Positions 50,997-53,483 are shown, counted from the stretch's first letter. The stretch is 64,000 bases of DNA from an uncultured Christensenella sp. (GCA_910578325.1 CAJTQT010000001.1:4527-68526); one strand, 5' to 3'. The notes: generated by a model not told the origin, from the letters alone. Numbers and translations: made by a program.

Positions 50997-51941
50997 TCAA
51001 AAACAAAGCGCCGCCGCGCCTATTATACCCGCGTCGTTTCTGAGCGTTGCCGCCACAACTTTGATTTCTGGATTGTACTCCGCTCCGTAAACATTTTCCG
51101 AAACGTATTTCTGCAACGGCTTGACAAAACTCTCGCCCTGATTTGAAATCCCTCCGCCGATAATGATGACTTCGGGGAAAAATATATTCGCAAACGTGAC
51201 AAGTCCCGCGCCGACGTATTCTATATAGCGTTGCAAAGTTTCCGACGCTACGGCATCCCCCATCTGAGCGCAGGTAAATACGGTTTTTCCGTCAACGCCG
51301 TGTTCGAGCGCGTATTTTGCAAGCAGACTGTCGGGGTGTTTTGCGCAAGCCTCGCTAACCTGAGATATCAGCGCGGTTGCCGAGGCATACGCTTCGTAAT
51401 GCCCGCGCTTTTTACAGCCGCAGGTTGCGCCGCCTATGTTTATCTGAATATGTCCGCCTTCCGCGCCCGCCGAGCAATTGCCAGTCAGCAATTTTCCGTC
51501 GACTACGATTCCCGTGCCGACGCCCGTGCCGAGAGTTACCAGCACACTGTTCTCCGCGCCGTTGCCCGCTCCGAACAGAGTTTCGCCGAGCGCGGCGCAG
51601 TTTGCGTCGTTGCTCACTTTCACAACCTCGACGTTAAGAAGAGATTTCATCATATCAACTATGGGAGTATTTCTGAAATTTATATTGCAACTGTATCTTA
51701 CAACGCCCTTTTCATCGTGTACCGAACCGGGACAGCCTATCCCGACTCCGCATATCTCCGATTTATCCGTTCCGCTTTTGCGAAGCACGTCCTCCGCGAG
51801 GGCGGCGATATCCTTTACAATCTCCGTGTCCGCTTCGCCTGCGCGTATAGGCGCGGCGTCCTTAAATAAAAGCGAACCGTCGCGCGAAACAACGCCGCAC
51901 TTGACGCTCATTCCGCCGATGTCTATGCCTAAGTATTTCAT
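50997..51941 (-). CDS. glcK: ROK-family glucokinase
   Basis: MKYLGIDIGGMSVKCG, the ROK signature region and a CGCKKRGHYE zinc motif are present. I chose the ATG at 51941 because a consensus promoter occupies the extended N-terminus of the track ORF. Confidence 0.85.
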   Translation of the reverse strand: MKYLGIDIGGMSVKCGVVSRDGSLLFKDAAPIRAGEADTEIVKDIAALAEDVLRKSGTDKSEICGVGIGCPGSVHDEKGVVRYSCNINFRNTPIVDMMKSLLNVEVVKVSNDANCAALGETLFGAGNGAENSVLVTLGTGVGTGIVVDGKLLTGNCSAGAEGGHIQINIGGATCGCKKRGHYEAYASATALISQVSEACAKHPDSLLAKYALEHGVDGKTVFTCAQMGDAVASETLQRYIEYVGAGLVTFANIFFPEVIIIGGGISNQGESFVKPLQKYVSENVYGAEYNPEIKVVAATLRNDAGIIGAAALCF

Positions 51942-51981: not shown

Positions 51982-52010
51982 ATTTTATAATATTGCATCT
52001 GAATTGTCAA
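51982..52010 (-). promoter_or_regulatory. Sigma-A promoter of glcK
   Basis: The minus strand reads TTGACA (52010-52005), a 17-nt spacer, then TAAAAT (51987-51982). Confidence 0.6.
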
Positions 52011-52036
52011 ACGAATAAAAAAGTGCTTGTAGAATG

Positions 52037-52063
52037 AAAAAAAGCACTCATAAAGAGTGCTTT
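52037..52063 (-). terminator. Rho-independent terminator closing the candidate sRNA
   Basis: On the minus strand, AAAGCACUC-UUUAU-GAGUGCUUU is followed by a U run. Its 3' arm can alternatively pair with AAGCACU (52028-52022), which is also followed by a U run. Confidence 0.7.
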
Positions 52064-52066
52064 TAG

Positions 52067-52164
52067 TCTTTGGTGTTTAAAAACTCATAAGTATTTCAAC
52101 AAACCTTAGTAACCCGAACTCTTTGGTGTTTCAAGTCGCGTTAGTTTCTCGAAAATCCTTAGTA
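52067..52164 (-). repeat. Two tandem 45-nt units sharing conserved ends
   Basis: The units at 52120-52164 and 52067-52111 (read on the minus strand) both have the form UACUAAGG-N25-AAACACCAAAGA. The period is 53 nt. Confidence 0.8.
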
Positions 52165-52173
52165 TATGATGAT

Positions 52174-52202
52174 ATATTACTACAAATTGCGACGAATGTC
52201 AA
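52174..52202 (-). promoter_or_regulatory. Consensus sigma-A promoter of the candidate sRNA
   Basis: The minus strand reads TTGACA (52202-52197), a 17-nt spacer, then TAATAT (52179-52174). Confidence 0.6.
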
Positions 52203-52352
52203 CAAATTTCGCGCTTAATTATAAATAAATCTCGCGCAACCCCTCAAGTTTAACAGAACGTTTAACTTCCTTTCAACCCCTCAACGCTTATCCGCACATC
52301 ACAAACAGATGTAAGCGTCATACTAGCCGCGCGATGATTATACAATTTCAAA

Positions 52353-52574
52353 ATGGAATACGGTTTGAAAACTACGGTCGGCAAAAATCTCAAAGAAAGC
52401 CGCACCGCCGCAGGGTACACTCAGGCGCAGGTTGCAAAACTAATGAATATGACGCAACAGCAATACAGTCGGTTTGAAAACGGCATATTCGAACTCAACT
52501 ATGACCAACTCGTATATCTTTGCACGCTTTTCGACGTTTCAAGCGATTTTTTATTAGGTCTTTCGCTGTTTTAA
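52353..52574 (+). CDS. Small XRE-family HTH transcriptional regulator (73 aa)
   Basis: GKNLKESRTAAGYTQAQVAKLMNMTQQQYSRFENG is a canonical Cro/C1 HTH. No SD is visible. TACAAT ends 6 nt before the ATG, so a leaderless transcript is possible. Confidence 0.75.
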   Translation: MEYGLKTTVGKNLKESRTAAGYTQAQVAKLMNMTQQQYSRFENGIFELNYDQLVYLCTLFDVSSDFLLGLSLF

Positions 52575-53483
52575 ACTTTTGGCAAAAAATGATTTTTTTG
52601 TTTTCGCGTTTTCAACCGCCTCTTTTTGCAATCTGTTTTTTTGCGTCTTCGCAGGCTTTCCTTTTCCGCTCAAAGCAGATTCGAGCGTATTAGATAGCCT
52701 GTTTTTCAGCGCAAGAGCCTTTAAATCCGCTTCTGAAAGCACCGCGACGGGTTCGCCTTGCGGACCTATGATTTCAAACGTCGTTTCACAAGTCGACGCG
52801 ACGTGATGATACAGCCTTATAATCGGAGCGTCCTGCGAAATTCTCACCGTCTTACGCTCTACCCCCAGCATATAATTCTTGCTCGCACTGTCCAGAATGC
52901 TGATATACATCTCCTCTTTTGTTCCGAACGCCGAACCGTAAAACAGAAATACCGCTATTATTCCGAAAGTAAAATTGAGTCCGAAAAAGAAGGAACCTAT
53001 AAAAAGCCCTAAAAATATCACGCTGCAAACTATCCCCGCAATTTGCAAGCCTTTTATCGCTTTGAGTTTGTTTTTGCAAAGTCCGAGAACTATGCGCGAG
53101 CCGTCCAAAGGATATATCGGAAGCAGATTGAAAATGCCCAGAGAAAGATTTGCGTAAAAGAAAATCTCCGTATACGAATATACCGAGGGGAACAGCCACC
53201 ATACGCCCAGCGTGATAAGCGAGAGCACAAGATTGCAAACAGGACCTGCAAGCCCCACAAGTACAGAGGACGGACGGTCGAAATTCTCTTCCGTACTCAT
53301 CATTGCGCCGAACGGAAGGAGCACCATTTTCTTTACGGTAAACCCTCGCAGCCGCGCCATAGCCGCGTGCGCGAGTTCGTGAAGAATAAGCGCGATAAAC
53401 GTCAGCACAAACGCCTGCGCCCGCCCGAGCGCGACAAGCGCGAGAGCGAGCACGAAAAACAGCGGATGCACTTTTATCTGCAT
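52554..53483 (-). CDS. spoIVFB: M50 site-2 metalloprotease, SpoIVFB-like
   Basis: HELAHA zinc motif in a TM helix, the NLLPIYPLDG motif, and a C-terminal CBS-like domain are present. The position after the min genes matches Bacillus. Confidence 0.8.
   Translation of the reverse strand: MQIKVHPLFFVLALALVALGRAQAFVLTFIALILHELAHAAMARLRGFTVKKMVLLPFGAMMSTEENFDRPSSVLVGLAGPVCNLVLSLITLGVWWLFPSVYSYTEIFFYANLSLGIFNLLPIYPLDGSRIVLGLCKNKLKAIKGLQIAGIVCSVIFLGLFIGSFFFGLNFTFGIIAVFLFYGSAFGTKEEMYISILDSASKNYMLGVERKTVRISQDAPIIRLYHHVASTCETTFEIIGPQGEPVAVLSEADLKALALKNRLSNTLESALSGKGKPAKTQKNRLQKEAVENAKTKKSFFAKSLKQRKT

Follow-up and report, generated by a model that had tools for sequence, protein, structure and literature searches.

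We describe a candidate small RNA gene, credible as a lineage-specific orphan, that lies in the intergenic region between an M50 membrane protease gene and a glucokinase gene (glcK) of an uncultured Christensenellales-like gut Clostridia bacterium. The element was analysed within a stretch of 64,000 nucleotides, hereafter called the window. Our preferred, though tentative, reading is that of a small, independently transcribed non-coding RNA which is restricted to its lineage and which may act through repeated unpaired 12-mers. The transcription unit itself is more secure than this reading as a whole, and we regard it as probable; expression of the candidate RNA, its action in trans and a binding partner are what we infer for it. 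In both the window and its closest sampled relative (locus L002), the predicted features have the generic layout of a stand-alone small RNA gene, in which a promoter and an intrinsic terminator enclose 50-300 nt of intergenic DNA.

The element interrupts a conserved housekeeping cluster with the order mreB, minD, an 83-aa gene, a 78-aa gene, the M50 protease gene, the element, glcK, a radical SAM gene, DUF2344 and RNase E/G, and relatives of the source carry the labels Christensenella or Christensenellales. The window derives from a metagenome scaffold; the source samples are ENA ERZ28595601 / SAMEA5690331 for the window and SRR21474239 for L002. The coordinates of the features are collected in Table 1. 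In the window alone, a small gene for an XRE-type HTH protein sits between the M50 gene and the element, at 150 nt from the RNA promoter, and it is an insertion specific to this genome that is absent at that position from L002 and from all other relatives. This gene converges on the M50 protease gene (52554-53483, minus strand), whose 3' end it overlaps by 21 nt.

Table 1. Features of the candidate RNA gene and of its immediate surroundings, in window coordinates.
Feature	Coordinates	Strand	Remarks
Sigma-70-type promoter TTGACA-17-TAATAT	52174..52202	-	10/12 consensus matches
Unit 1: UACUAAGG, 25 nt, AAACACCAAAGA	52120..52164	-	weak hairpin possible, GG:CC-closed, -6.3 kcal/mol
12-mer copy 1, AAACACCAAAGA (shared motif AARCRCMAAAGA)	52120..52131	-	mean unpaired probability of last 7 nt (CCAAAGA) 0.89
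Unit 2: UACUAAGG, 25 nt, AAACACCAAAGA	52067..52111	-	weak hairpin possible, -4.1 kcal/mol, no better than shuffled
12-mer copy 2, AAACACCAAAGA	52067..52078	-	mean unpaired probability of last 7 nt 0.42
Intrinsic terminator: AAAAGCACUC, loop UUUAU, GAGUGCUUUU, 7 U	52037..52064	-	-15.6 kcal/mol, z = -7
AAGCAC + 6 U, partial copy of terminator 5' arm	52017..52028	-	repeat D2
glcK own promoter TTGACA-17-TAAAAT (context, outside RNA)	51982..52010	-	11/12 consensus matches; conserved 5' of glcK in relatives
ROK-family glucokinase gene (glcK), downstream neighbour	50997..51941	-	PF00480, E = 1.6e-62
XRE-type HTH gene, 73 aa, divergent from RNA (context)	52353..52574	+	HTH_3

The minus-strand promoter from which a first, sequence-only reading of this DNA had started is present where that reading placed it, and we predict a transcription start near 52167, taken as 7 nt past the -10 box. 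Such a 10/12 site is not rare in AT-rich intergenic DNA, and in both the window and L002 promoter-like sites are observed at only about double the mean of shuffled sequence. Two exact copies of an 11-nt direct repeat, TTGAGGGGTTG, were also found on the minus strand (52237-52247 and 52274-52284, 37 nt apart). Another promoter-like site on this strand (52247-52218, TTGAGG-18-TATAAT) takes its -35 box from the downstream copy, and one more (52276-52247) is next to the upstream copy; these two sites could give rise to longer isoforms that enter the RNA unit. The promoter that the sequence-only reading had assigned to glcK itself, past the terminators, was likewise recovered. Since glcK keeps this near-consensus promoter, also in relatives that have no such unit, the earlier view of the element as a stand-alone unit and no simple leader is supported in silico.

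Downstream of the promoter are two repeat units of the form TACTAAGG-N25-AAACACCAAAGA, which had been described as having identical ends and spacing. Both are exact (52164-52120 and 52111-52067), they recur with a period of 53 nt, and none of 100 shuffled windows contained the pattern, even with 3 mismatches allowed. Over their 45 nt the units are 76% identical, both ends being identical throughout and the interior in 14 of 25 positions (56%), with the 11 mismatches confined to the inner 25 nt (P ~4e-4, with block boundaries that were set after seeing the data). Unit 2 also contains an 11-mer, TGAAATACTTA (52087-52097), that is identical to the start of glcK (51930-51940), covering the end of the start codon and the next three codons (ATG AAA TAC TTA). 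An origin of unit 2 from the glcK start region by way of this 11-mer was rejected because, striking as its position is, such matches occur at chance level across the window (E ~2). We found no credible open reading frame in the predicted transcript, in agreement with the earlier statement that no frame with a ribosome binding site is present: minus-strand frames of at least 20 aa begin upstream of the -35 box or are situated beyond the terminator, and those within the transcript comprise 3-4 codons without a proper ribosome binding site.

The terminator hairpin (52064-52040) had been given a 9-bp stem. It is indeed a strong terminator with a run of 7 U, but its stem has 10 pairs; as judged from its symmetric sequence, it could work in both directions. 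A tandem or alternative terminator had also been proposed, in which the terminator 3' arm pairs with a second segment further downstream. This segment, AAGCAC (52028-52023), is followed by a U run and is able to pair (-7.4 kcal/mol alone), yet the alternative is minor: in full context it is not populated and the main hairpin makes up 84-91% of the ensemble. AAGCAC and its U run are absent from L002. Outside the terminator the RNA body has no significant fold (z = -1.9). The claim that the unit ends are not self-complementary was correct only in part, because the minimum-energy hairpin of an isolated unit is closed by the GG of UAAGG and the CC of CACC, but these unit hairpins fold no better than shuffled sequence. 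The 12-mer copies are mostly unpaired in the predicted ensembles (0.42-0.89), copy 2 having the lower value because it is able to pair with an upstream GAGUUUU. By eye, most 12-mer copies stand directly 3' of a small AU-rich hairpin, the 3' strand of which is the AAA(C) start of the motif.

We compared the DNA upstream of glcK in 80 species-representative genomes (kinase identity <=68%) and in the ten closest metagenomic relatives (73-79% kinase identity). Among the roughly 100 related loci examined, only L002 carries a counterpart at the same position; L002 is the closest sampled relative of the window (kinase 79% identical), and the window in turn is the closest relative of L002. As the upstream regions showed when read, 9 of the 10 closest sampled relatives lack the element, as do about 90 that are more distant; in all of these the M50 terminator is followed more or less directly by the conserved glcK promoter. 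Regex, profile and pattern searches of ~637 kb of related DNA revealed no unit-like sequences beyond the window and L002. The sequence-only reading had allowed that the idea would fall if the region were not conserved even in close relatives: one sister species has the same architecture and length, but some 100 other loci lack the element, which comes near to that outcome. Several Christensenellales relatives (L004, L006, L007, L010 and L014) share a different feature, a perfect palindrome or hairpin of the form CAAAGTCT-N3/4-AGACTTTG that is conserved within the ~35 nt preceding the glcK start codon and directly adjoins the ribosome binding site on its 5' side. Neither the window nor L002 has this feature, which could serve glcK as an operator or in translational control.

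The L002 counterpart, also between M50 and glcK, consists of a promoter (TTGACT-17-TAGAAT), a body of ~110 nt and a terminator (AAGCACTCTTTAAGAGTGCTTTTT). The two promoters are identical in 18 of 29 positions with a 17-nt spacer in both, the terminators are identical in 23 of 24 positions, and the predicted transcripts, measured the same way, come to ~134 nt in the window and ~135 nt in L002. The bodies, on the other hand, align no better than random. That the two elements are homologous is argued from synteny, promoter, length and motif taken together. The terminator by itself contributes nothing to this argument: its exact hairpin, AAGCACTCTTTANGAGTGCTTTTT, recurs 3' of unrelated phage structural genes in viral contigs (L089-L094), and 3' of a membrane-protein gene from a low-GC organism on an unrelated metagenome contig (L102 1781-1808). 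Here a single hairpin sequence has been reused convergently, a warning against taking a terminator on its own as evidence of RNA homology; when used as a homology probe, the terminator yielded no new members of the element. The L002 sequence from the M50 stop codon to the shared hairpin holds no other terminator, so that the RNA region serves as the 3' UTR of the protease mRNA as well. Between the L002 unit and the glcK promoter, a second terminator, likewise strong (13 pairs, 2874-2903), insulates glcK, and an opposite-strand 11/12 promoter-like site at the glcK start (2995-2966) faces back across the intergenic region; neither feature has a counterpart in the window.

What the two bodies have in common is the 12-mer motif AARCRCMAAAGA, which we derived by aligning all AAAGA-containing sites and which was thus defined after seeing both sequences. 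The window holds two copies (AAACACCAAAGA twice), and L002 holds two strong copies (AAGCACAAAAGA and AAACGCAAAAGA, each matching the window 12-mer in 10 of 12 positions) as well as two weaker ones (ATGTACAAAAGA and TCGCGCAAAAGA). Two 12-nt segments as close to the window 12-mer were found in only 4 of 20,000 shuffles of the L002 body. The 7-nt core of the motif, CMAAAGA, is over-represented in each of the bodies, the observed count being reached in 3 of 5,000 and 0 of 5,000 shuffles, respectively. Across the window and 104 loci, paired degenerate 12-mers occur only in these two elements. The copies are spaced at 53 nt in the window and at 29, 20 and 28 nt in L002. The other conserved unit end, UACUAAGG, is specific to the window and does not occur in the L002 RNA. 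The promoter, terminator, length and motif are kept while the body drifts, as would be expected if the unit and its short motifs were under selection. Repeated unpaired motifs that are kept, with variable copy number and spacing and unconstrained linkers, fit a trans-acting RNA that works through its motifs.

Viral contigs were also scanned for the motif. Paired degenerate 12-mers were found there at 127 hit loci in two scans, all of which we discarded as unrelated to the element; 154 of 166 matches lie in long open frames as coding tandem repeats, and the remainder are low-complexity repeats. Pairs of AARCRCMAAAGA are common in the coding tandem repeats of giant-virus MAGs, which encode lysine-rich periodic proteins (L109, L115, L134, L145, L148 and other viral or giant-virus contigs). 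The full unit pattern gave two matches in viral contigs, both at chance level and inside coding sequence.

Database searches gave no indication of a known RNA family, and the sequence-only reading had matched the element to none either. Rfam 15 at gathering thresholds had no match anywhere in the window, and permissive scans of the element and L002 gave best scores of 10-26 bits against thresholds of at least 48 (E 0.14-2.8), matches that were all driven by the terminator hairpin and are at chance level. A blastn search of the element against phage and plasmid records was negative, and in the literature on the motif and on sponge RNAs of Clostridia we found nothing relevant. For eight orthologous neighbour genes, duplex prediction with their start regions produced no outlier in either genome (all |z| < 1.6), and exact complements of the motif, UCUUUGG and UCUUUUG, were matched in non-orthologous genes. 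A K-turn, a preQ1-I-like tail, a cre or CodY box, a CRISPR-like repeat-spacer layout and tiny ORFs were considered by inspection and set aside, their features being mismatched and without model support.

Homologues of the small HTH gene next to the element, with 62-77% identity (L097-L101), occur in differing housekeeping neighbourhoods, for example between tsf and pyrH or beside gap, and are accompanied by divergent small genes such as those for a 49-aa protein with CxxC pairs and a 41-aa hydrophobic peptide, which suggests that the HTH gene and its companions form a small mobile repressor-plus-cargo cassette. Between the HTH gene and the RNA promoter lies a palindrome, ACATC-N7-GATGT (52296-52312; ACATCTGTTTGTGATGT in minus-strand reading). 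Palindromes of this type also accompany HTH homologues of unrelated genomes, where they occupy the -35/-10 spacer of a divergent promoter (L097 ~1850-2000, L100 ~1874-2000), and they are probably the operator of this small group of HTH repressors. The equivalent divergent promoter of the window appears to be degraded. We rejected the HTH regulator as a partner of the RNA because its homologues stand in unrelated contexts with small-protein cargo and with a different operator-like palindrome, and because L002 has no HTH gene.

The general form of the element is shared with several well-known classes of RNA. Trans-acting small RNAs of the Firmicutes such as RoxS/RsaE, SR1 and FsrA are likewise ~100-200 nt long and non-coding, with a sigma-A-type promoter, an intrinsic terminator and a short unpaired motif repeated within the molecule. 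However, the seed of RoxS/RsaE is C-rich whereas AARCRCMAAAGA is A/C- and purine-rich, and the element matches no Rfam sequence or structure and is limited to two sampled lineages. Like the sponges CsrB/RsmY/RsmZ (CsrA) and CrcZ/CrcY (Hfq/Crc), it is a promoter-to-terminator unit with several mostly unpaired short motifs, the number and spacing of which vary by species (2 versus 4 here) while the linkers drift freely; a change in motif copy number is a pattern seen in sponge RNAs. It differs from them in having just 2-4 copies of a motif that is neither ANGGA nor a clean AANAANAA. CrcZ and CrcY carry A-rich AANAANAA motifs, and the element does not fit a CrcZ-type titrator of Hfq/Crc, in which several such motifs are contiguous, because the 12-mer reads in triplets as AAA-CAC-CAA-AGA or AAR-CRC-AAA-AGA, where the CRC triplet interrupts the ARN run of AANAANAA. 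As in the type I 3'-UTR-derived small RNAs MicL and DapZ, the L002 unit uses the terminator of an upstream mRNA (M50) in common with it and is served by a separate promoter within the 3' region, but this promoter is located past the stop codon and not inside the coding sequence, and in the window the unit and M50 are set apart by the opposite-strand HTH gene insertion. Type III toxin-antitoxin loci (ToxIN, CptIN, TenpIN) resemble the element in their succession of a promoter, direct repeats of ~45-53 nt, a terminator and a downstream gene. We discarded this possibility given that the gene downstream, in place of a ToxN/AbiQ/CptN-type endoribonuclease gene co-transcribed by terminator read-through, encodes a conserved glucokinase of the ROK family and has a separate promoter, and that the synteny is that of housekeeping genes; the repeats of the element are, moreover, merely 76% identical.

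The most serious challenge to a functional RNA, although we judge it less likely, is that the element is a by-product with little or no function, put together from the M50 terminator, a 53-nt tandem duplication and a fortuitous promoter or pervasive non-functional transcription. The hairpin would then end the M50 transcript and insulate glcK, and duplications in L002 would be independent. The very narrow distribution (2 of ~100 loci) is in line with this, as is the fact that in relatives M50 is followed at once by a terminator and next by the glcK promoter, and in L002 the hairpin is needed anyway, being the first terminator past the M50 stop codon. The modest twofold excess of promoter-like sites over shuffled sequence, the lack of a significant fold in the RNA body, and unit interiors that still agree in 14 of 25 positions, as duplication predicts, point the same way. 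However, neutral decay should spread mismatches evenly, which is at odds with unit ends that are fully identical and interiors that are 56% identical; the 12-mer is kept across species in a body that cannot otherwise be aligned; and the two species agree in promoter position, spacer and transcript length.

Readings in which the repeats serve another purpose fare less well. It seems quite improbable that the unit is a cis-acting leader, that is, a second glcK promoter with a regulated attenuator at which a protein or ligand bound to the repeats controls read-through. In both genomes the unit is directly upstream of glcK on the same strand, 12-mer copy 2 abuts the terminator stem, and the occurrence of UUAUGAGU in both unit 2 and the terminator 3' arm (repeat D6) hints at competing pairing. 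Yet we found no convincing antiterminator, with the main hairpin so dominant in the ensemble, and no match to an Rfam riboswitch or leader family; past the terminator, moreover, the 11/12 glcK promoter is conserved in relatives without the unit, L002 interposes its second strong terminator and ~80 nt before the glcK promoter, and almost all glcK orthologue loci examined are missing the element. Very low plausibility also attaches to the view that the repeats act at the DNA level, as direct-repeat sites (in double-stranded form, TCTTTGGTGTTT) for a DNA-binding protein such as the adjacent XRE-type HTH regulator, controlling divergent promoters. The HTH gene is indeed divergent and only 150 nt from the RNA promoter, and a 53-bp period amounts to about five helical turns, but L002 has a motif array without an HTH gene, with spacings (29, 20 and 28 bp) that are out of helical phase. 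All motif copies, furthermore, have the same orientation and are placed past the promoter, within the transcribed DNA, and what recurs beside HTH homologues is the operator-like palindrome at 52296-52312, outside the units. Least tenable of all is a CsrA/RsmA-type sponge that sequesters CsrA through AAGGA motifs, an analogy drawn in the sequence-only reading. The SELEX consensus for CsrA is RUACARGGAUGU, which AUACUAAGGAUUU in unit 1 resembles with one extra base. Sponges of this type carry many GGA/ANGGA motifs (usually at least 7), mostly in hairpin loops and conserved among homologues. The window has a single GGA-type site, unit 2 having AAGGU in place of AAGGA; the L002 RNA lacks UACUAAGG and has GGA just once, in a CGGAA; unpaired probability at the CUAAGG sites is merely 0.37 and 0.63; and the Rfam models of CsrB, RsmY and RsmZ gave no match. 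The analogy is hence not upheld, the motif common to the two species being AARCRCMAAAGA.

Under our preferred reading of a young trans-acting small RNA, the sigma-70-type promoter would start a transcript of ~130 nt that runs on the minus strand from about 52167 to 52038, where the strong intrinsic terminator would end it. The A/U-rich, weakly structured body would display the 12-nt A/C-rich AARCRCMAAAGA copies as multivalent binding sites acting in trans. Two modes of action may be envisaged: the RNA could be a sponge or decoy that titrates an RNA-binding protein, or it could pair with G/U-rich (UCUUUKG) sequences of other RNAs. The unit would have arisen recently, in the common ancestor of the two sampled lineages, and in the sister species it would double as the 3' end of the protease mRNA.

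To the best of our knowledge no protein-sequestering sponge of the CsrB/CrcZ kind has been described in Clostridia, and sponge RNAs are, as far as we are aware, scarcely known in Firmicutes at all. Although it is a long shot, 2-4 unpaired AARCRCMAAAGA copies might titrate a global RNA-binding protein such as Hfq, a KH-domain protein or a new regulator. Such an RNA would be the functional counterpart, in a Gram-positive organism, of CrcZ or CsrB, with a recognition motif that is new, and its adjacency to glucokinase might link titration to carbon metabolism. More generally, if the element is real and expressed, it would represent an unannotated small RNA, absent from Rfam, in a poorly studied uncultured gut lineage of Christensenellales-like Clostridia, and it would offer a clean example of small-RNA birth and turnover, captured in two sister lineages within an otherwise conserved gene cluster.
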